From a virus: DNA of 61,334 nucleotides. Location: IMG/VR virus record IMGVR_UViG_3300045988_079341, one strand, 5' to 3'. A program made the position numbers and the translations under genes. Of this stretch, positions 5,541-61,334 are shown one piece after another (the stretch's first letter is position 1; each line of letters opens with the position of its first letter). Under the pieces are notes generated by a model, which did no database searches, was not told the origin of the DNA, and saw only the letters and a program-made list of their open reading frames with translations.

Positions 5541-5747
5541 ATGGCTATTATTGCATTAAAAATGCAAATACCGAAAAAGATTTTTCGTGTTGAGTCTTCT
5601 GGATTATGCAGAAGCCAGTTTATCTGTCCGTTCTGTGGCGCGGATCAAATGACAATGGAATTCTTCACAGAAACAGGAGAAGACCCAAAAGAAAAATTCA
5701 CATGGTGTCCCGACTGCGGGCATAAATTGGATTGGAGTGATATATAA
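5541..5747 (+). CDS. Zinc-ribbon protein (68 aa)
   Basis: CPFCG...CPDCG paired CxxC motifs. Confidence 0.5.
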   Translation: MAIIALKMQIPKKIFRVESSGLCRSQFICPFCGADQMTMEFFTETGEDPKEKFTWCPDCGHKLDWSDI

Positions 5748-19551: not shown

Positions 19552-19628
19552 ATTTTCCCTTTCTGGTCTGCCATCATCAGCACCGGGAGACCGTCCCGCG
19601 GTGGACGCCCTGGCGGGCGTTTCGGCTG

Positions 19629-20388: not shown

Positions 20389-20517
20389 ATAACGCACATA
20401 TAAACATAAAACAATATGGGATAGTTTACAAAATAACGCACATATAATAAAGGGAAAATGTGCAAAATATATAACGCACATACGCCCATTGACATTATAA
20501 CGCACTTATGATATATT
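20389..20517. promoter_or_regulatory. Divergent control region with four ATAACGCAC boxes and a TTGACA-17-TATATT promoter
   Basis: Boxes at 20389, 20433, 20471 and 20497. -35 at 20489..20494 and -10 at 20512..20517. Confidence 0.6.
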
Positions 20518-20546
20518 ACATATAAAAAAGAAACGGAGGCGTAAAA

Positions 20547-20744
20547 ATGGAAAAGCTGAAAACGACAGAAGCACAAAGAAAAGCTGTTAGGGAGTACGAA
20601 AAAAACAACTATAGATTAAATATAGTATTCCCAAAAGGGACAAAAGAACGCATAGAGGCGCTAAACCTAAACAAAACAAATTCCGCTTTTATCCGGGATA
20701 CTATAATATCAAAATTGGACGAGCTGGAAAAAATCTTAAAATAA
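20547..20744 (+). CDS. Small Arc/RHH-like regulator (65 aa)
   Basis: YRLNIVFPKGTKERIEAL...SAFIRDTIISKL follows a beta-strand plus two-helix pattern. It is flanked on both sides by the same operator/promoter cassette. Confidence 0.55.
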   Translation: MEKLKTTEAQRKAVREYEKNNYRLNIVFPKGTKERIEALNLNKTNSAFIRDTIISKLDELEKILK

Positions 20745-20787
20745 CGCACATACGCCCATTGACATTATAACGCACTTGTGATATATT
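20741..20787 (+). promoter_or_regulatory. Second copy of the operator/promoter cassette
   Basis: 20741..20790 matches 20471..20520 at 47 of 50 positions. Boxes at 20741 and 20767, -35 at 20759..20764, -10 at 20782..20787. Confidence 0.6.
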
Positions 20788-20849
20788 AGCAGTGTAATAA
20801 AAAAACGGCCTGCAAAATCCGGACCGGGCAAAATTCAGGAGGACGCAAA

Positions 20850-24172: not shown

Positions 24173-24245
24173 AGGCACTTAGCTCAGCTGGAAGAGCATC
24201 CGTCTTATACGCGGCTTGTCCTGGGTTCGAGCCCCAGAGTGCCCA
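24173..24245 (+). tRNA. tRNA-Ile(TAT)
   Basis: Canonical TA-GCTC-AGCTGGAA-GAGC D-arm, anticodon loop ctTATac, T-arm ctggg-ttcgagc-cccag. The acceptor has an A1-C72 mismatch. No encoded CCA. Confidence 0.85.
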
Positions 24246-26615: not shown

Positions 26616-26807
26616 ATGCATTCACAGTTTGTTTATTGCCCGAAATGCAAAAGAAGAGTTGCACGATACGACGGAAAATCAAAGATAAATATAATTGTGG
26701 AATGCAGGAAATGCAGGCAGCTTGTACTATTTCACGTAGACACCGGAATTACTGAGAATAAGCGTGTCCCAAAAAGAAATACAAGTTCTGGTACAACGAT
26801 TTGGTAG
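26616..26807 (+). CDS. Mu Com-like zinc-finger protein
   Basis: CPKCKRRV...INIIVECRKCRQLV follows the Com-type CxxC...CxxC layout. Confidence 0.5.
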   Translation: MHSQFVYCPKCKRRVARYDGKSKINIIVECRKCRQLVLFHVDTGITENKRVPKRNTSSGTTIW

Positions 26808-26817
26808 GTGTTTAAAT

Positions 26818-28242
26818 ATGAACAGAATCGGATTTAACGATTTAGTGAACGGGGATTTTGGAAGAAAAATAGCGTACACGGACGCTACAGAAATAAATTC
26901 ACAAAATGTTGTTGACATAATCGGAAATTGCATCGGATGTTTTTACAAAAACAAGCCTGCCATAAAATATCTCTGGAAGTATTACAAAGGAGATCAGCCG
27001 GTTCTTTACAGAACTAAAATATCAAATGAGGATATTATAAACAAAGTTGTTGAAAATCACGCATATGAAATTGTTCAGTTCAAGGTTGGCCAGACATACG
27101 GAGAATCGATACAGTTTATAAGCAGAAAAGACGATGAAAAAATAAATAAAGCGGTTGACGATCTGAACGACTTTATGGCAGATGCAAACAAGCAGGAAAA
27201 AGACGTAAAAGCGGGCGAGTGGCAGTCTGCAACCGGAACTTCATTCAAAGCGATTCAGCCGAAAAGCGGAGACGTACCATTCCGTATCGTAGCACCTAAT
27301 CCTTTAAATACTTTTGTGATATACAGCAAAAGCACAGAGGAACCTATGCTCGCTGTCCAGGAATTAAAAGACGAAAATGGGAAATATTACAAGATGGCGT
27401 TTTCCGATACGATGTCTTTTAAAGTAGTTGACAGCACAGTTGTGGAATCAAAGCTTCACACATACGGAGAAATACCGATTGTCGAATATCCAAACAATCA
27501 CGAGAGGATATCGGACATAGAACTTGTTGTGTCTATTCTTGATGCGGTAAATACGATGCAGTCAAACCGTATGGACGGCGTTGAGCAGTTTATACAGTCG
27601 TTTGTAAAATTCGTAAACTGCGAAATAGACGCGGAACAGTTCGAAAAAATGAAAATGGAACATGCATTTGTAGTGAAGTCCATAAATAAGGATTTTAAGT
27701 CGGATGTAGACCTGATTACTCAAGAGCTTAATCAGACGCAATGCCAGGTTGCGAAAGACGACCTGTGGGATAATGCACTTTCCATCTTGGCAATACCAAC
27801 AAAGCAGAGCAACACTGGCGGCGACACGCAGGGGGCGGTTCAGCTTCGCAACGGCTGGGACTTCTCGAAAACAAGAGCAAAATTAAAAGATCCAATTGTA
27901 AAAACAGCAGAAAAGAGATTAGCGGTTGTTGCGTTAAATGTACTCAGGATGGCAGGAATTGACCTGAAACTTTCCGTTAGGGATTTTGATGTGCAAATTA
28001 ACCACAGCCCACAGGACAACATGTATACGAAGTCGCAGACACTCTACCAGCTGTTACAGTCTGGTATTCATCCACTTGTCGCGATTAAAACAGTCGGACT
28101 TTGGGGGGATTCCGAAAAAACATTCCTTTTATCGAAACCATATATTGATAATTTGTGGAAGACGATTTACGACGTAGCGGAAAAAGTCGATACAAAAAGC
28201 GTAAATAACGATCCTAGAAAGGAGCCAGAGAATGAAGTATGA
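26818..28242 (+). CDS. Portal protein (SPP1 gp6-like)
   Basis: Size and position after terL. SD ggtaggtg lies before ATG 26818. Confidence 0.75.
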   Translation: MNRIGFNDLVNGDFGRKIAYTDATEINSQNVVDIIGNCIGCFYKNKPAIKYLWKYYKGDQPVLYRTKISNEDIINKVVENHAYEIVQFKVGQTYGESIQFISRKDDEKINKAVDDLNDFMADANKQEKDVKAGEWQSATGTSFKAIQPKSGDVPFRIVAPNPLNTFVIYSKSTEEPMLAVQELKDENGKYYKMAFSDTMSFKVVDSTVVESKLHTYGEIPIVEYPNNHERISDIELVVSILDAVNTMQSNRMDGVEQFIQSFVKFVNCEIDAEQFEKMKMEHAFVVKSINKDFKSDVDLITQELNQTQCQVAKDDLWDNALSILAIPTKQSNTGGDTQGAVQLRNGWDFSKTRAKLKDPIVKTAEKRLAVVALNVLRMAGIDLKLSVRDFDVQINHSPQDNMYTKSQTLYQLLQSGIHPLVAIKTVGLWGDSEKTFLLSKPYIDNLWKTIYDVAEKVDTKSVNNDPRKEPENEV

Positions 28243-28471
28243 AAACAATGTCGTTCAGGACGGCGTTACGTATATGGCTGGTGAAGACGTCCCCGACATG
28301 GGAAGCATCATATGCATAAAATTTTCCGGCAATATCAGAAGTTATGAAGGACTGCAAAAGGACGTCGCAAAGCTTCCTACATATGTTGCAACAGGTAGCT
28401 CCTGCTTAATGGTTGACACGGGAAGGTTTTATAAGTTCGAAAAAACAACAAAAACTTGGTATGAACTATAG
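28232..28471 (+). CDS. Hypothetical protein (79 aa)
   Basis: Overlaps the portal stop. No motif recognised. Confidence 0.45.
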   Translation: MKYENNVVQDGVTYMAGEDVPDMGSIICIKFSGNIRSYEGLQKDVAKLPTYVATGSSCLMVDTGRFYKFEKTTKTWYEL

Positions 28472-28486
28472 GAGCGATGCCGGAGA

Positions 28487-30205
28487 ATGGAAGCAAACGA
28501 AGTATATGCAATACTAAAAAATCTAATAAAGAAGAATTCTGGGGCAACCGACGAACAGATTAAGCAGGCCGTGGAAGAATATCTTATTAAAAATCCCGTA
28601 TCTGTAGAAACTGATAAGACCTTGTCAAAAAATGGAGTTCCGGCGGATTCAAAAGCCACAGGGGATGCGATAAAGAAAGCAGGAGAAAAGGTAAGCAGCA
28701 CCATTGACGAAAGAATCATGGACGCATTTTTCGGATCGATGAGAAACGGAAAAGTTTACCAGACGGAGCTGTATTTAACAGAGACAAACCCAACATCGGA
28801 CGGTGTAAAAACGCTTGCCAACAAAGACAAGGTGTGTGAACCTTCAACTGATACTTTAGAAGGTCGAGACGACTATGAGGGTATCGGTATTTTTAACTGG
28901 TACAACTGCAATTACGTCACGGATGACTACGGGCGCAAGATCCCTACAGCAATTGAGGGATGGGGAAACGGATATAAAAACGACAGCACTGTTGACGTAG
29001 GAGTTATCGCAATGACTCCGTACTGGTCGGTTATTGAGAAAGATGGGAAGCATATCTGGACGTTATCGGACACACCAAACGATGACTATGGGCTGATCCC
29101 ATGGGAAACGGCGAGAAAAGAAGATGGAACTTACGCATCCTATGTAATCCACAGCAAATACGTAAGCGGTATTGGAGCGGATGGTCTACTGAGATCATTC
29201 AAAAACTCAAAACCAGCAAGAAACCAGTGCTACAACAACATGATAGACAACTACCAAAAAAAAGGAAAAGGTTGCTGGGGAGCTGGAAAAGAAAGAGACA
29301 TGTACGTTATTTTGTACGACGTAATCAAGTACGCTACAAAAAACGAACAGAAAACCTTCAAGGGAACAACGAACTACAATTTCCAGATTACGGCGTCGAT
29401 AGAAAGAAGCACAAAAGAAACTTACTTCCCGGTGGCAAACAATCAGGCGGCGCAAATCATTGTTGGAGGTTACGTCTCCGTTGGATACGGAGCTAAAAAC
29501 ACAGATAACACGGTAACTAACGACAGGGGATACGCGACGATCCACCAGTATGCTGACGATGTTAAAGTGCTGAGGATCGAAGATCTGGGCGAAAACAACA
29601 AAGCTGTGTATCTGGACGTTGAGGACGGATTTACCACAAGCCCTGTTGCGTTGAGCGACGACGTAAATGCGCAGATAATTTTAACGTCGATGCACTGGTG
29701 GAGCGGCACGACGGACAAAGTAATCGGGAAGCACGATGGCTCAATGACATCCAACACGGATGGCAAGCATCCGTTTAGGGTAATGGGTCTGGAATGCTCT
29801 GTTGGCGGTTATGTAGTATACGCAGACTCGGTTATGATATTTAAAGAGGACTACAGCAAAGATGTATATATTGCGCCGAGAGGGACGAAACATGTAAAAG
29901 ACGAAGCGACGATCAAGAACACCTGCAAACTAATCGGTAATATACCTGGAAACGAGGGAAATGATTTTTGGATTGGCGACATCGGCGTTGATGTGGAAAC
30001 GTGCTCATGGTTTGCAAAGACCGTCGGAGCAAGCGATTCGCAAGGCTGGGGCGACAGATGCTACTCTGGTGGAAAAAGCACATCTGGAACCAGAGAGGAT
30101 CTTGGGCGCGGTTATCTCAGGCTTGGGTCGAATGCCGGCTCTGTTTGCGTGTATTGCTGGAACTGGCTCGCCAGGGCGCTCTGGAGCTCCCTCGGCTGCG
30201 AGTAA
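28487..30205 (+). CDS. DGR target protein (fibre/receptor-binding-like, C-terminal variable region)
   Basis: N-terminal TLSKNGVPADSKATGDAI fibre-type motif. The last 32 codons are the VR. The TR-encoded version RGNLRNGSNAGSVYVNCRNRLDRANWNYLG matches the AAY-rich ligand-binding pattern of DGR C-type-lectin-fold targets. Confidence 0.85.
   Translation: MEANEVYAILKNLIKKNSGATDEQIKQAVEEYLIKNPVSVETDKTLSKNGVPADSKATGDAIKKAGEKVSSTIDERIMDAFFGSMRNGKVYQTELYLTETNPTSDGVKTLANKDKVCEPSTDTLEGRDDYEGIGIFNWYNCNYVTDDYGRKIPTAIEGWGNGYKNDSTVDVGVIAMTPYWSVIEKDGKHIWTLSDTPNDDYGLIPWETARKEDGTYASYVIHSKYVSGIGADGLLRSFKNSKPARNQCYNNMIDNYQKKGKGCWGAGKERDMYVILYDVIKYATKNEQKTFKGTTNYNFQITASIERSTKETYFPVANNQAAQIIVGGYVSVGYGAKNTDNTVTNDRGYATIHQYADDVKVLRIEDLGENNKAVYLDVEDGFTTSPVALSDDVNAQIILTSMHWWSGTTDKVIGKHDGSMTSNTDGKHPFRVMGLECSVGGYVVYADSVMIFKEDYSKDVYIAPRGTKHVKDEATIKNTCKLIGNIPGNEGNDFWIGDIGVDVETCSWFAKTVGASDSQGWGDRCYSGGKSTSGTREDLGRGYLRLGSNAGSVCVYCWNWLARALWSSLGCE
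30106..30201 (+). repeat. DGR variable repeat (VR)
   Basis: 96-bp match to 30289..30384 at an offset of 183. There are 14 mismatches, every one opposite an adenine in the TR. Confidence 0.9.
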
Positions 30206-30288
30206 AATTAGGTCGTCGGGGGTGAATTTCCGAAGGAAAGAGGGGATCGCCCCAATACGACCGGAACAATTAAAAGGACTTACGGCGC

Positions 30289-30384
30289 GCGCGGTAATCT
30301 CAGGAATGGGTCGAATGCCGGCTCTGTTTACGTGAATTGCAGGAACAGGCTCGACAGGGCGAACTGGAACTACCTCGGCTGAAA
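30289..30384 (+). repeat. DGR template repeat (TR)
   Basis: Noncoding copy containing 24 adenines. 14 are substituted in the VR and 10 are conserved. 0 of 72 non-adenine positions differ. Confidence 0.9.
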
Positions 30385-30587
30385 TTGTTAATTTACAAAC
30401 AAAAAATATTTGCGTCGTATTTCGCACTCGTAAAGAGTGTAGCCGAAAGGCTCTTGGGCAGATGCCCGAAATACTTTTTATAGACCTACTAAAACTTTCA
30501 CAAAGGAAGGAGTAAGGATAGGCAGGGAACGCCTGCTTGTCGGGGTTAGTAGTAAAAACCGAAAGCCCTTATAAAGACAATCGAAAA

Positions 30588-31772
30588 ATGAAAACGTATT
30601 GTAAAAAGGTCGATATCACCGATAGAAAGCTGATACAAAGAGCGGTGTATAAGTGTCTCAAGAAGAAATACAAAAGAAACGATGTGCACAGGATGTTTGC
30701 AGAGTACACTGGACTTCCGGCAGATTTTATACGGAGAGTGCTGAACGAATTTGGTATAAAGGGACTGGAACCACTAGTAGAAATGGTAATCGACGGTGTA
30801 CGTGAAGAAATTATCCAAAATAACATAAAATTTAAACCGATATGGTACAAGAATAAAATTGACGCGTCCAGTCAAAAGGTGCGGAGAATCGGAATTCAAA
30901 ACATCAAACAGCAGATATATGACTATATCGCCGTAGAAGCTATGGGAGACATCCTGAAAAGAATTGGAGAATACCAATGCGCGGCGTTGAAAGGAAGAGG
31001 TCAATCATACGGGATTAAAGCGATAAAACGCTGGATGCGAAACAAAAATATCAGATACGCAGGACAATGCGACATAAAAAAGTGCTATCCGTCAATAGAC
31101 AGAAATAAGCTGTTGGAGTTTTTAGAGAAACGAATTAAAAACAAGCCACTACTTGGCTTGATAAGGCGCCTGGTAATGACGTTTGACACAGGATTGAGCA
31201 TTGGATCGTATTTGAGCCAGTATCTTTGCAACCTATTTTTATCTCAGGTATATCACACAGTAGCCGAAAAAATGTACCGTGTAAGAAAGAAAAGAAATGG
31301 AACAAAGAAGCGGATTAACCTTGTAAAGCACCAGCTGTTCTTCATGGACGATATGCTGATTCTTGGCACGAACGCAAGTGATATCCATAAAGCGATGGAT
31401 ATGATAATACAAAAGGCTAAAGAAATGGGGCTGGAAATCAAAGACAGCTGGTCGGTTTTTACAACAGTTAGCAAGAGCAAAGATGACGGACACTTTATCG
31501 ACATCATGGGAGTGCGCATATACAGGCAACACACTACGATCAGGCGGCGCGTATTCCTACGCGTTCGTAGGGCGTACAAAAATGCGCTTGCACTTATAAA
31601 GCAAAGTAAGAATGTGCCGCTGTGGCTTGCAAGAAAGTGCATGTCATACAAAGGAATCCTAGACAACACAGAAAGCCATAATATAAAAAAGAAATACAAT
31701 ACAAGCAAAATAATACACATTTGCAAAGGAGTGATATCGCGTGAAAGCAAGGTTCGATTCAGAGCAGCCTAG
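30588..31772 (+). CDS. DGR-type reverse transcriptase
   Basis: KVRRIGIQN (motif 2), LSIGSYLSQYLCN (DGR-typical [ILV]GxxxSQ), LFFMDDMLILG (YxDD-type catalytic motif). Lies downstream of the TR. The ATG at 30588 is preferred over the TTG at 30537. Confidence 0.85.
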   Translation: MKTYCKKVDITDRKLIQRAVYKCLKKKYKRNDVHRMFAEYTGLPADFIRRVLNEFGIKGLEPLVEMVIDGVREEIIQNNIKFKPIWYKNKIDASSQKVRRIGIQNIKQQIYDYIAVEAMGDILKRIGEYQCAALKGRGQSYGIKAIKRWMRNKNIRYAGQCDIKKCYPSIDRNKLLEFLEKRIKNKPLLGLIRRLVMTFDTGLSIGSYLSQYLCNLFLSQVYHTVAEKMYRVRKKRNGTKKRINLVKHQLFFMDDMLILGTNASDIHKAMDMIIQKAKEMGLEIKDSWSVFTTVSKSKDDGHFIDIMGVRIYRQHTTIRRRVFLRVRRAYKNALALIKQSKNVPLWLARKCMSYKGILDNTESHNIKKKYNTSKIIHICKGVISRESKVRFRAA

Positions 31773-32073
31773 CGTTAGGTGTGTTTCTGATTCCGGCAAT
31801 ATATATATATTTATTGCCGTAAACGGGAAGTGGACAGAAACCGTGTATGATGAAACGCAAGATCCACAGACAGTGTGGGAATGCGACTACAGAGAAATTG
31901 CGACAAGAGAAGGCAGAATAGACCTAGAGAAAGTAAAAGAGAATCCGAGTAAATATCTGGATTGGGTGGATCAGGAAGAAAGGAGCGCAGAAGAGAAAAT
32001 TGCAGAGTTACAAGACCAAAACAAGATGCTAACACAGTGTTTAATGGAAATGTCGGAGATTGTATATGCTTAA
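31741..32073 (+). CDS. XkdW-like hypothetical protein (beta N-terminus plus coiled coil)
   Basis: The layout resembles proteins that follow tail fibres in PBSX-like elements (from memory). GTG start overlaps the RT 3' end. Confidence 0.45.
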   Translation: MKARFDSEQPSVRCVSDSGNIYIFIAVNGKWTETVYDETQDPQTVWECDYREIATREGRIDLEKVKENPSKYLDWVDQEERSAEEKIAELQDQNKMLTQCLMEMSEIVYA

Positions 32074-32095
32074 ATGCTTAGAAAGGATGGTAATT

Positions 32096-32242
32096 ATGAT
32101 GGCTATGTTATGGGCGCAGGAAATTATGTCTCAGGAGACAATTGAAGAAGCAAAGAAAATGTATCAGAGATGTCCCAGACTGTTAAAGGAAAAGGTTAAG
32201 GCTATTCTGATAAACAGCGGGTTTGAAGAGATTACAGAATAA
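32096..32242 (+). CDS. XkdX-like small protein (48 aa)
   Basis: LWAQEIMSQETIEEAKKMYQRCPRLLKEKVKAILINSG pattern. SD aaagga lies 8 nt before ATG 32096. Confidence 0.4.
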   Translation: MMAMLWAQEIMSQETIEEAKKMYQRCPRLLKEKVKAILINSGFEEITE

Positions 32243-32247
32243 AGAAA

Positions 32248-32862
32248 ATGGCGGGAATACGATTAAAAAATGACGAATTAAACGTCATTTCATATGATAA
32301 GTATTTCGGAGAAATGGACATTTCGGAAGAAGAAAAGGAAAAGCGCAAACAGATTGCAAAAGAGCTGGAAGATGCTTTTTTTATTATGTTTTATCTTCTT
32401 ACAGATTCAGATATCGAAAGCGTATACAAATATATTCAGGAAAAGTATTGCGAAATCTGCAGAAAATACATTTCTTCGAAAGAAACGCCAACGTACATTG
32501 TTACGTATTCCGCTTATATTACAAAGCAGATCATTGATTCTGTAAAAGAAAATTTTGTTTATAACGCGGATACATGCAGATTGAAATCCATGAATATTGC
32601 AGCGAATGAAGCAAACGTAATTGGAAATTACATAAATCAAAAGGACGCAGTACGTCATGGGTTTAAGTACAAAGTTTGGAAGACCAAAGAGGACAAAAAA
32701 GTCCGACATACACATGTAAAAGTGGACGGAAAAAAGCTTGGAATATTCGATTCTTTTCAAGTCGGAAATTCTGAAATGATGTTTCCGAAAGATTATTCAC
32801 TTGGGGCGCACCCAGAGGAAATAGTAAACTGCCGGTGCGTAGTTAAATATGAAAGAAGTTAA
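32248..32862 (+). CDS. Minor head / head-morphogenesis protein (Mu F / SPP1 gp7-like)
   Basis: C-terminal VRHTHVKVDGKKLGIFDSFQVG...MFPKDYSLGAHPEEIVNCRCVV signature. Confidence 0.75.
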   Translation: MAGIRLKNDELNVISYDKYFGEMDISEEEKEKRKQIAKELEDAFFIMFYLLTDSDIESVYKYIQEKYCEICRKYISSKETPTYIVTYSAYITKQIIDSVKENFVYNADTCRLKSMNIAANEANVIGNYINQKDAVRHGFKYKVWKTKEDKKVRHTHVKVDGKKLGIFDSFQVGNSEMMFPKDYSLGAHPEEIVNCRCVVKYERS

Positions 32863-45843: not shown

Positions 45844-46269
45844 TTGCCTGACGAAATTACAGAGTTGATACCTCCGAAAACGGATTGGTTATCTTCGGAC
45901 AGGTTTAATATCGAGGACTACAACCGAATCAGGAACAATATTTTGTATATACACGGTATCGCTAATCAGGTCTATCCGTCGTTTGAGCTCGAAAGTATGG
46001 GAGAGATCAAAAACTCTTACGAGGGATACTGGACGGCGAATGAATTCAATGCAATCGAGAGCAACGTGTCCGCAATCAACGATCATATCTTGTCGAAAGA
46101 TTACGGAGTTCCACAACGTTTTTTCCCGAATGGGGCTTTTATAAAATGGGATGAACTAAACAGAATTGAATCTGCAATATCGTCTATGAACGCTATTTTA
46201 GCAAGGCAAAAAGGAAGCATACCACGGCTGCAGTTCAGACTTGGAAACTACAAATCCATTAAAATTTAA
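45844..46269 (+). CDS. Tail-associated hypothetical protein
   Basis: TTG start abuts the upstream stop. Assigned by position. Confidence 0.4.
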   Translation: MPDEITELIPPKTDWLSSDRFNIEDYNRIRNNILYIHGIANQVYPSFELESMGEIKNSYEGYWTANEFNAIESNVSAINDHILSKDYGVPQRFFPNGAFIKWDELNRIESAISSMNAILARQKGSIPRLQFRLGNYKSIKI

Positions 46270-46285
46270 TCATGTGGAGGCACTT

Positions 46286-47575
46286 ATGTATTTAAAGTTT
46301 TTAAACAGTAAAAAGGCGATAGAATGCTCTGTTATTACGTGCGGAGACAACGTCGTTACGATTCTGCCAAAAACCAAAATATCGGTAAACACAACTGGAT
46401 TTGACCTGTATTTAGACAAAGACTGCGAAAACAACATAGGTGGAGATTATTACCATGGTTTCACTACAGTCTACAGGAACGATTCGGAAACAAAAAAATA
46501 CAATGGATATCAGCTTTCAAATGACGGAAGTGTTTACGAAAAAGAAAAGCACACAGTTCTGTTTCGTGCCGGCGCAAATGGTCATCTTTCCGGGAACTTG
46601 GAAATAAAGGCGGATGACTATAGCGGTCTGATTGTTCCGGAAGCTTCTGGCGAAGAAGGATACAAATTTTCTGGATGGCTTCCGGAAATACCAAAAGACG
46701 GAGATATAAAGGAAGATATTACGTTTACTGCTATTTTTTGTGAAAAACCAACAGTAACTTTCAAATCCTCAGAAAATGGTGGAATTATCGGAAACAGTGT
46801 GCAAAAAGTTGACCGTTACGAAGATTTAAAGATTCCAGATGTTTCTCCGATTTCTGGTTACGAGTTTGCCGGGTGGCTTCCTGAAATTCCGGCGTCTGGC
46901 GACATAGACACAAACAAAAAGTTCACAGCAAAAATACGAAAAATATTTGTTCCTACAATCAGGTTTACTGTGTCAGATAAAGGTACAATTTCCGGAGATG
47001 CGGAGCAGCACGAAACTTCTTATGAAAACATAATTGTTCCCAGTGTGGAAACAGAAGAAAATTACAGGTTTACCGGCTGGGTTCCGGAGGTTCCAAAAAG
47101 CGGAAGCATCGAATCTGACGTAACATTTGCAGCAGACATAGAATATGTCCCTACGCTGGATGATGTAAAGGAAGAAAAAATCCTGTCATTAAATTCCGAG
47201 CAGCAGTCCACCATTGCAGAAGGGTTTGACATCACTCTTACGAGCGGAACTGTAGAACATTTTACGTTGACAGAGCGAGACCAGACAAGCCTTGTCGGAT
47301 TGCAGACGCTTGTTATGTCAGGAGCCGAGTCTATACCGTGGCACACATCGGATCATTCTGAGCACTGCCGCTATTACTCGAACGCAGACATGTCGCTGAT
47401 TGTGAGCAAGGCATTACAGTTCGTCACATATCACGTTACATATTTTAGAGACCTGAGAATATATGTAAACAGCATGGTAGACAAAGAGAGTGTAAACGCT
47501 GCTTATTACGGAATGTACGTACCGGAGGAATATCAGTCCGAGGTATTAAAGGACATTTACAAGCAGCCGAACTAA
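46286..47575 (+). CDS. Tail fibre-like protein with three Listeria-Bacteroides (InlB B-type) repeats
   Basis: Three repeat copies: YKFSGWLPEIPKDGDIKEDITFTAIF, YEFAGWLPEIPASGDIDTNKKFTAK and YRFTGWVPEVPKSGSIESDVTFAADI. Confidence 0.6.
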   Translation: MYLKFLNSKKAIECSVITCGDNVVTILPKTKISVNTTGFDLYLDKDCENNIGGDYYHGFTTVYRNDSETKKYNGYQLSNDGSVYEKEKHTVLFRAGANGHLSGNLEIKADDYSGLIVPEASGEEGYKFSGWLPEIPKDGDIKEDITFTAIFCEKPTVTFKSSENGGIIGNSVQKVDRYEDLKIPDVSPISGYEFAGWLPEIPASGDIDTNKKFTAKIRKIFVPTIRFTVSDKGTISGDAEQHETSYENIIVPSVETEENYRFTGWVPEVPKSGSIESDVTFAADIEYVPTLDDVKEEKILSLNSEQQSTIAEGFDITLTSGTVEHFTLTERDQTSLVGLQTLVMSGAESIPWHTSDHSEHCRYYSNADMSLIVSKALQFVTYHVTYFRDLRIYVNSMVDKESVNAAYYGMYVPEEYQSEVLKDIYKQPN

Positions 47576-60809: not shown

Positions 60810-61334
60810 ATGAAAACATACAAGGGATTTAATAAAAACATGACCGCAAAAAATGGATACAAGTATGAAGAAGGAAAGGAATACGAAGAGGAAAAGGCAG
60901 TTTCCTGTGAATGTGGCTTTCATGCATACGAATATCCTTTGGATTGTTTTAGTTATTACAATCCAGCAAGCAGCGTTTACCACGTTGTAGAACAAAGCGG
61001 CGAATTTAGTAAAAACAGCGACGATTCAAAAGTTGCATCCACAAAAATCAAGATTGGAGCAGAAATTTCGATTGCTGGTCTTGTTAAAGCGGCAATTGAA
61101 TATACAAAAGAGAGAACAAAACCAGAATGTGACGCAACAGGCTACAAAGGCGCATCCTCCGCAACAGGCGACTACGGCGCATCCTCCGCAACAGGCAACT
61201 GCGGCGCATCCTCCGCAACAGGCGACTACGGCGCATCCTCCGCAACAGGCTACAAAGGCGCATCCTCCGCAACAGGCTACAAAGGCGCATCCTCCGCAAC
61301 AGGCTACAAAGGCGCATCCTCCGCAACAGGCGAC
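60810..61334 (+). CDS. 5' part of the nonapeptide-repeat phage protein (open at the window end, continues at 1..381)
   Basis: MKTYKGFNKNMTAKNGYKYEEGKEYEEEKAVSCECGFHAYEYPLDCFSYYNPASSVYHVVE..., then GASSATGxx repeats. No stop before the window end, and exactly 175 codons. It resembles a prophage protein family I recall as DUF7666-like. Confidence 0.7.
   Translation, partial: MKTYKGFNKNMTAKNGYKYEEGKEYEEEKAVSCECGFHAYEYPLDCFSYYNPASSVYHVVEQSGEFSKNSDDSKVASTKIKIGAEISIAGLVKAAIEYTKERTKPECDATGYKGASSATGDYGASSATGNCGASSATGDYGASSATGYKGASSATGYKGASSATGYKGASSATGD
61149..61334 (+). repeat. Tandem 27-bp repeat array (6.9 units) at the 3' end of the window
   Basis: Units start at 61149, 61176, 61203, 61230, 61257, 61284 and 61311 (last truncated). 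Same core as 1..135. Confidence 0.95.

Follow-up and report, generated by a model that had tools for sequence, protein, structure and literature searches.

What element occupies positions 28487 to 31772 of the virus record IMGVR_UViG_3300045988_079341 (IMG/VR), and does it still rewrite the gene that it adjoins? An earlier note, drawn up from the letters of this 61,334-nucleotide (nt) stretch of DNA, hereafter the window, had proposed a complete diversity-generating retroelement (DGR) of a phage, with a template region (TR), a variable region (VR) at the end of a target gene, and a reverse transcriptase (RT). Our analysis leads us, with high confidence, to the view that the locus is a DGR free of accessory genes, comprising a target with its VR, a TR and an RT, in a siphovirus-like gut phage, and that its relatives reside in phages and prophages of Clostridia, mainly Lachnospiraceae. 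The element is apparently active. Its core features are:

28487..30205, + strand: DGR target gene of 572 amino acids (aa), fibre-type, with a short helical N-terminus and a conserved module of about 500 aa ending in the VR
30106..30198, + strand: VR, residues 541-570 of the 572-aa target, delimited by ungapped comparison and a repeat finder
30199..30205, + strand: VR-specific fixed 3' boundary CGAG plus the stop TAA, where the TR has AAAT; the difference is the same in all relatives
30289..30381, + strand: TR, non-coding, with 21 adenines and a TGA at its end in the VR frame
30588..31772, + strand: DGR RT of 394 aa, with RVT_1, SIGSYLSQ, FFMDD and an N-terminal extension of about 90 aa

Adenine-restricted differences and codon design

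Set against each other, VR 30106-30201 and TR 30289-30384 align without gaps at an offset of 183 over 96 positions and differ at 14 of them, which in TR numbering are 30296, 30305, 30306, 30330, 30335, 30341, 30347, 30354, 30362, 30363, 30369, 30372, 30382 and 30383. All 14 mismatches fall on TR adenines, 10 further TR adenines are unaltered, and none of the 72 non-adenine positions is altered, a distribution with a hypergeometric P of 8e-11 (14/14 mismatches on 24 adenines among 96 positions). Realignment thus reproduced the count given in the earlier note, with no mismatch at a non-adenine position. As diversified sites, 12 of the 14 stand. The difference at 30382/30383 (AA in the TR, CG in the VR) is probably a fixed boundary outside the mutagenised tract, not a product of diversification, because it is identical in every relative: all related loci have CTGCGA in the VR and CTGAAA in the TR. 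With this pair removed, 12 of 21 adenines are changed in a 93-nt core (hypergeometric P = 7e-10 for 12 mismatches on 21 adenines among 93 core positions). An independent repeat finder returned the same core, the pair 30106-30198 / 30289-30381 of 93 nt (family D3), and no third copy of the TR/VR repeat was found in the window on either strand. The VR had been described as the last 96 bp of the open reading frame (ORF); it instead stops one base short of the last sense codon, the stop TAA lying at 30203-30205. From the TR to the RT start downstream the distance is 207 nt, and the template has a TGA in frame.

In the frame of the target ORF, which enters the TR at 30290, the template reads RGNLRNGSNAGSVYVNCRNRLDRANWNYLG and then TGA, as previously translated. 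Its core adenines are distributed as 11 at first, 10 at second and 0 at third codon positions. The 14 diversified codons (543, 545, 546, 549, 554, 556, 558, 559, 560, 562, 563, 565, 567 and 568) consist of 7 AAY, 4 AGG, 2 TAC and 1 GAC, so that the statement that AAY occupies most variable sites has to give way to 7 of 14. Computed from these 14 codons, about 9e11 protein variants are reachable and a stop codon is unreachable.

The reverse transcriptase

The 394-aa ORF downstream of the TR matches Pfam RVT_1 at 2e-15 and carries the expected SIGSYLSQ and FFMDD. We place its start at ATG 30588 and not at the upstream TTG 30537, because the stretch 30537-30588 is conserved as RNA, with indels that are not multiples of three. 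Both SIGSYLSQ and F/YMDD are invariant throughout the RT clade. DGR RTs are distinguished by having [I/L/V]GxxxSQ where group II and retroviral RTs have QGxxxSP, together with YxDD. Among solved structures, the top sequence match is the RT of the Bordetella phage DGR (bRT, 8ub7_A). The same structure is the best fold match of an AlphaFold (AF2) model built with 46 homologues as input (pLDDT 88.9), at an E of 2e-15, a template-modelling (TM) score of 0.82 and a root-mean-square deviation of 3.9 Å, against TM scores of 0.45-0.6 for G2L4, DRT9, group II intron and retron RTs. The relatives listed by tblastn for GenBank phages include the DGR RTs of the BPP-1 group and of Hankyphage (p00), and the RTs of FP_Epona, Butyrivibrio and LBR48 phages.

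Could the enzyme belong to another class, that of retrons, group II introns or Abi/DRT defence systems, with the nearby repeat being an unrelated duplication? Weak matches to generic group II intron and DRT RT profiles point that way, and PADLOC likewise returned weak generic matches only. We consider this extremely improbable, given that the group II maturase profile TIGR04416 scores 58 bits against a cut-off of 300 and Drt3a 25 bits against 200, that bRT comes first by sequence and by fold, and that the adenine-only repeat signature is present both here and in most clade loci examined. Moreover, 30050-30700 yielded neither intron RNA domains nor msr/msd nor any other Rfam family. Motifs, best PDB sequence match and best fold match of the model support the assignment of the RT to the DGR type, in keeping with the DGR-typical motifs pointed out in the earlier note.

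The target protein

Searches with the target sequence against Pfam, NCBIfam and PDB gave no match, and its only family match is PHROG 17147, of unknown function. The family comprises 657 clusters at 50% identity, in which the module of about 500 aa is always C-terminal, and the N-termini in front of it are very variable, some of them collagen-like. An AF2 model of the target (pLDDT 92.7, pTM 0.88) has as its best fold match in the PDB the variable protein TaqVP of another DGR (5vf4), which adopts a C-type-lectin fold (E 5e-5, probability 1.0). This agrees with the C-type-lectin-fold target foreseen in the earlier note. Among viral proteins, the best fold neighbours of the model come from gut phages and bear the names tail collar fibre, tail fibre or collagen-like. 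Hence, we propose from the modelled fold that the VR codons may lie at the C-type-lectin-like tip of a fibre or receptor-binding protein, the receptor-binding role being suggested by the relatives of the target.

Natural variation among relatives

If the element diversifies its target, closely related phages should differ chiefly in the VR, and this is what we observe, taking differences between assemblies as a proxy for those in a population. In the 120 closest target homologues (93-98% identity), variation is almost confined to residues 543-568, the adenine-templated codons. The 67 proteins of 572 aa (60 of them among the matches listed), which are 93-98% identical overall, carry different VRs, and entropy across them is concentrated at the same codons.

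We retrieved 31 related IMG/VR loci and located the TR and VR in each. Among the 21 distinct TR/VR pairs so obtained, 313 of 320 mismatches are at TR adenines and 7 elsewhere; adenine sites are altered in 67% of cases, against 0.5% for other sites. The TRs are near-identical within lineages and far more conserved than the VRs across loci, and the VRs all differ. Non-adenine, lineage-specific substitutions are common to each TR and its own VR, as predicted by continuing TR-to-VR copying. The pattern extends to four GenBank scaffolds (L032-L035) with an RT identity of 35-50%, in which mismatches are almost only at TR adenines. Scanning GTDB genomes with a single RT as query confirmed no locus; a scan with an alignment of 8 RT sequences recovered loci with RTs of the same clade, of which 31, from prophages or metagenome-assembled genomes, were examined. 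At least 80% of the mismatches lie at TR adenines in 24 of these, the signal in the remainder being blurred by crude extension of the repeat boundaries, and the VR-to-TR offset is compact (168-277 nt) in 29 of the 31. The genomes concerned are those of Lachnospiraceae, Eubacteriales, Blautia, Mediterraneibacter and Hespellia stercorisuis DSM 15480 (clade member L126). Overall, the RT clade ranges through Clostridia, mainly Lachnospiraceae, in prophages and gut phages.

Several relatives depart from the common pattern. In a widespread sister lineage with 575-aa targets (L001-L004, L015 and L027, VR 5620-5727; P0041, P0059 and others), 9 nt are duplicated in the VR and not in the TR. The duplicated copies, GCGTACTGG and GCGGACTGG, both derive from the TR stretch GCGAACTGG and differ in base at its first adenine, which suggests slippage of the RT. 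In four 570-aa proteins (P0020, P0045, P0057 and P0065), the C-terminal end is the unmutated TR-encoded ...YVNCRNRLDRANWNYLG, followed by the TR's own TGA. At one such locus (L150 2501-4213), the distance from the target stop to the RT is about 180 nt shorter, VR and TR being fused and the intervening spacer gone. These fusions represent either assembly collapse (contig coverage at L150 is 1.8x) or a real VR-TR recombination that destroys the element. Finally, the TRs of L005 (5804-5896) and L007 (5809-5901) are down to 17 and 13 adenines, against 21-24, and at the sites of adenine loss have the same base as their own VRs. The pattern suggests a back-copying of VR sequence, or of mutagenised cDNA, into these TRs.

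The spacer RNA and elements flanking the repeats

The following elements lie between the TR and the RT:

30382..30587, + strand: structured TR-to-RT spacer RNA, predicted by RNAalifold on an 11-sequence alignment, with compensatory changes
30417-30474, + strand: four-way junction, a stem 30417-23/30468-74 plus three hairpins
30517-30541, + strand: 10-bp hairpin (RNAalifold)
30542-47/30564-69, + strand: stem carrying GGGGUUAGUAG (RNAalifold)
30384-30389 / 30576-30581, + strand: duplex AUUGUU/GACAAU, joining the sequence directly 3' of the TR with that just before the RT start codon

The spacer of about 200 nt is conserved as RNA and not as protein, as its indels are not multiples of three. RNAalifold on the 11 sequences folds it into 9 helices with 50 pairs, 98.1% of them paired. 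It contains 14 compensatory pairs, a number reached by 0 of 500 shuffles, slid controls giving 0-4. The AUUGUU/GACAAU duplex is invariant in the close set. In the distant L033 and L034, other complementary sequences occupy the same two places (UUUCUAA/UUAGAAA and UUUCUG/CAGAAA, respectively), a complementarity read by eye from the sequences, RNAduplex between TR ends and pre-RT segments being noisy and L035 AT-rich. Rfam holds no family for the spacer or for the RNA between VR and TR (the window at the gathering threshold; 30050-30700 at E up to 10). In BPP-1, pairing of the TR 3' end with the spacer creates the template:primer duplex, and the first base copied into cDNA is the one immediately 5' of this duplex (10.1101/2023.10.23.563531). 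By analogy, we infer that cDNA synthesis may here start at about G30381, which would explain why 30382/3 never vary.

Downstream of the VR lies a second group of elements:

30219..30229, + strand: GGGGTGAATTT motif, absent downstream of the TR; candidate target-site recognition element
30227-30239, + strand: hairpin 1, TTTCC-GAA-GGAAA, with one compensatory pair
30242-30253, + strand: G/C hairpin GGGG-ATCG-CCCC
30211-30216 / 30257-30262, + strand: complementary flanks GGTCGT / ACGACC, bracketing the two hairpins

The motif GGGGTGAATTT occurs once in the window and is kept 15-24 nt after the VR in all lineages, including L032-L035 despite their RT identity of only 35-50%. An AGAGGGG-loop-CCCC hairpin is likewise found in every lineage, with differing loops and lengths. 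RNAalifold on the VR-TR intergenic sequence, which is nearly invariant, gives one compensatory pair; the stem of the G/C hairpin is invariant and shows no covariation. The outer pairing that the program predicts differs from the expected GGTCGT/ACGACC stem, and we claim the two hairpins alone. The 3' end of the VR is thus marked by a fixed CG/AA difference, a VR-only GGGGTGAATTT and a conserved G/C hairpin, with no initiation of mutagenic homing (IMH) element of the (G/C)14 type. Target recognition in BPP-1 needs a hairpin/cruciform at the corresponding position downstream of the VR (PMC3240598).

Neighbouring genes and phage context

The cassette offers no room for an avd gene, only 83 nt separating the VR stop from the TR, and no Avd-type or HRDC family came up by Pfam, whether in the neighbouring ORFs or in ten small ones of the window (nine basic). 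A very divergent Avd could still have escaped the search, Avd proteins being poorly conserved; from the gene content, the cassette presumably works independently of Avd. Of the complete cassette claimed in the earlier note, therefore, the TR, VR, RT and phage setting stand, and completeness needs qualifying, as there is no Avd gene, a known variant of the DGR plan. Two sets of small genes flank the element:

28232..28471, + strand: 79-aa ORF (orf79), travelling with the fibre gene, outside the retroelement proper
31741..32242, + strand: 110-aa ORF (orf110) and 60-aa ORF (orf60), companions of the fibre module and not DGR accessory genes

Homologues of orf79 adjoin target homologues in L091, L099, L103, L108 and L113, and follow the RT in L033. 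The product of orf110, which overlaps the RT stop, has an isoelectric point of 4.4 and no Pfam match; orf60 gives a weak CD1375-like match and a match to PHROG 1382. We rejected orf110 as a substitute for Avd on account of its acidity and of its following target-family genes with no detected RT. At 23 of 80 loci, a target-family gene (48-50% identical) is followed by orf110 and mostly by orf60, with no RT match between them (among them L046-L050, L052, L054, L055, L058-L063, L065-L068 and L070); either the fibre at these loci is not diversified, or it is the remote target of a DGR situated elsewhere. Since homologues of orf110, orf60 and orf79 accompany target-family genes elsewhere, they are members of a fibre module into which the TR-RT unit was inserted.

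A free-standing RNase H gene lies between the VR and TR in L032 (4150-4659 of MT835469.1; Pfam RNase_H at 46 bits, cut-off 25.8). L032 represents a sub-lineage of the same DGR clade that also includes L089, L090, L096, L098, L102, L104-L107, L109 and L121, with RTs about 50% identical and a VR-TR offset of 740-754 nt. In a 2018 survey, no DGR RT proved to have an RNase H domain (PMC5758913).

The window is that of a siphovirus-like phage, with genes for a terminase, an SPP1-type portal, MuF, a major head protein, a tape measure, an endolysin and an anti-repressor. By DNA similarity, GenBank phages yielded one short match over the TR and spacer (MT835469.1) and one terminase match, with no described close relative. 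The fibre module (orf79, fibre, TR, RT, orf110 and orf60) is placed between the portal and a MuF-like head gene (region 26764-32862), and the same portal-adjacent module recurs in a lineage with a portal only 45-49% identical (L091, L099, L103 and L108). A second fibre-like gene, at 46241-47575 (+) in the tail module, encodes Listeria-Bacteroides repeat domains and DUF4376 and weakly matches a PHROG of tail fibres. The DGR does not diversify this gene, there being no further TR-like copy in the window.

This arrangement raises the alternative that the target is not a tail receptor-binding protein. It would then be a fibre attached to the head or neck, or some other adhesin of the virion, the ligand of which is not the host receptor but, for instance, mucus, other cells or a secondary receptor. 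The module stands well apart from the block of tape measure, distal tail and endolysin genes, this block has a tail-fibre-like gene of its own, and the portal-adjacent place is kept in the lineage with the divergent portal, all of which would suit such an adhesin. Nevertheless, gene position alone is no proof of virion location, the structural neighbours of the target are annotated as tail fibre proteins, and in a sister lineage (L011) the cassette is at the classical site, with a GDSL-esterase fibre protein ahead of it and a GH25 endolysin behind. On balance, we deem a non-tail adhesin rather unlikely, and continue to favour a putative receptor-binding fibre, probably of the tail.

An active or a fossil element?

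Several observations weigh against an active DGR that diversifies a receptor-binding fibre. The VR diversity observed is that between assemblies, a proxy for diversification within one population of exactly this genome. The VR of the 575-aa sister lineage is almost frozen over 49 protein clusters despite an intact RT, which shows that such elements can stall. Neither the surroundings of the cassette nor the ten small ORFs yielded an Avd or HRDC accessory gene, and Avd is essential in the only DGR that has been studied biochemically. As to the target, the fold match with TaqVP is moderate (TM 0.48 on target length), and a position between the portal and MuF genes is not the usual one of a tail fibre gene.

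Some of these points would fit a fossil DGR, in which past activity left the adenine signature and diversification has since ceased, possibly through loss of a trans-acting accessory factor. The missing Avd, the nearly invariant VR of the sister lineage and the adenine-depleted TRs of L005 and L007 (17 and 13 against 21-24) can all be read in this manner. However, the RT, TR, spacer RNA and VR-flanking elements of the present locus are intact and visibly constrained, and proteins 97-98% identical to the target differ in the VR, which requires very recent activity in the lineage. Further, 29% of the DGRs in the 2018 reference set have no Avd (PMC5758913). Hence, we hold a fossil to be quite improbable and retain the interpretation of an apparently active DGR.

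A proposed cycle of diversification

The observed repeat anatomy, codon design, RT kinship, target fold, covarying RNA, adenine-restricted hypervariability and TR-VR co-evolution lead us to propose the following cycle. A single transcript would span the TR and the spacer of about 200 nt that follows, and the conserved scaffold of this RNA would have its 3' part paired directly 3' of the TR. The RT would bind this RNA, prime in cis near G30381, as the analogy with BPP-1 suggests, and copy the TR into cDNA, putting in random nucleotides opposite the 21 template adenines. The cDNA would then replace the VR at the 3' end of the fibre gene, the direction of transfer being set by the fixed CG boundary, GGGGTGAATTT and the G/C hairpin in their putative roles. 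In this way, 14 codons would be rewritten and the adsorption specificity of the phage population kept or shifted.

Going further, and more tentatively, we consider it possible that these features together mark a mechanistically distinct, Avd-free branch of DGRs in phages and prophages of Clostridia. Such a branch would combine an RT with an N-terminal extension of about 90 aa, an RNA scaffold of its own (the four-way junction and the duplex between the TR 3' end and the pre-RT segment), target recognition by the VR-only GGGGTGAATTT and the G4/C4 hairpin in place of a classical IMH, and a portal-adjacent fibre, possibly a head or neck adhesin, with a sister sub-lineage adding the RNase H gene.

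The DGR explains a hypervariable spot in the genome that will break assemblies and confuse strain typing, and its target is the protein most likely to decide what the phage binds. The locus is also a natural data set, in that hundreds of near-identical genomes with differing VRs make the spacer RNA, motif and hairpin directly readable. It is convenient for asking how DGRs work without Avd, a question raised by Wu et al. 2018 (PMC5758913), the conservation survey in the BPP-1 cryo-electron microscopy preprint having covered Avd-containing DGRs only (10.1101/2023.10.23.563531).

Other features of the window

A type II hammerhead ribozyme (RF02276) is encoded at 19562-19627 (-), in the early/regulatory part of the genome, matching the full model at 59.8 bits (gathering threshold 37). 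A tRNA gene is found at 24173-24245 (+), just upstream of the terminase gene. The two ends of the window, 1-192 and 61095-61334, have in common an array of 27-nt (9-codon) tandem repeats (CGCAACAGGC.AC....GGCGCATCCTC; families D1/D2), and the assembly is probably circular or terminally redundant, with its opening point within a gene that contains the repeats. Direct repeats of 48 nt at 20471-20518 / 20741-20788 are 98% identical, 270 nt apart, and contain TTGACA ... TATATTA (D4); they look like duplicated promoter or operator sites.

Comparison with known DGRs

With the prototype, BPP-1, in which mtd with its VR is followed by avd, the TR and brt, the locus shares a C-terminal VR in a fibre-type protein with a C-type-lectin-like tip, adenine-only differences between TR and VR, and a TR directly upstream of the RT. 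The likeness extends to the RT fold (TM 0.82) and its I-G-S-x-x-S-Q motif, to fixed VR/TR differences at the 3' boundary, to a G/C hairpin after the VR, and to the pairing of the TR 3' end with spacer RNA, which resembles the template:primer duplex. The differences are equally plain. Unlike in BPP-1, there is no avd gene and the VR-TR gap is just 83 nt; the RT has 394 aa as against 328, at an identity of only about 19-25%; the target is without sequence similarity to Mtd; the (G/C)14 and 21-bp element that BPP-1 has inside its repeat is replaced by a few shared bases and then the VR-only GGGGTGAATTT; and the four-way-junction fold of the spacer is without a demonstrated equivalent.

In the order of target/VR, TR and RT and in having no accessory gene, the locus is like Architecture A (TR-RT) and the avd-less 'Lineage 3' DGRs (PMC5758913). 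By gene order it fits Architecture A, lacking the avd gene of BPP-1-type DGRs. Accessory-free DGRs constitute 29% of 372 reference DGRs, and Avd-independent retrohoming has been proposed for them (Wu et al. 2018, PMC5758913). Their description confines Lineage 3A to Bacteroides and its relatives (PMC5758913), whereas the present clade is in Clostridia.

As in the DGRs of gut phages such as Hankyphage p00, Faecalibacterium phage FP_Epona, the crAss-like phages and those of the Roux et al. 2021 catalogue, it is the C-terminus of a tail-type protein that is diversified, and the RTs of gut-phage DGRs are detectable relatives of the present one (25-28% identity). The phage lineage and target family are different from theirs, and there is no close GenBank phage relative, the closest phage records being the unannotated scaffolds MT835469, MT835477, MT835485 and MT839517. 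The target resembles TaqVP of the Thermus aquaticus DGR, its best solved structural match, in its C-terminal VR, and differs from it in sequence (identity of about 10%; TM 0.34/0.48), in its larger size (a module of about 500 aa) and in belonging to a phage fibre family.

Tens of thousands of DGRs have been catalogued (PMC8144416; PMC8008677), and they are enriched in the human gut and in Firmicutes (PMC8144416). The DGR mechanism is well known and very common in gut phages, and the locus is not a new kind of system. It is mildly interesting for the conserved RNA and target-site anatomy of an Avd-less lineage from phages of Clostridia, and for a diversified fibre encoded next to the portal.

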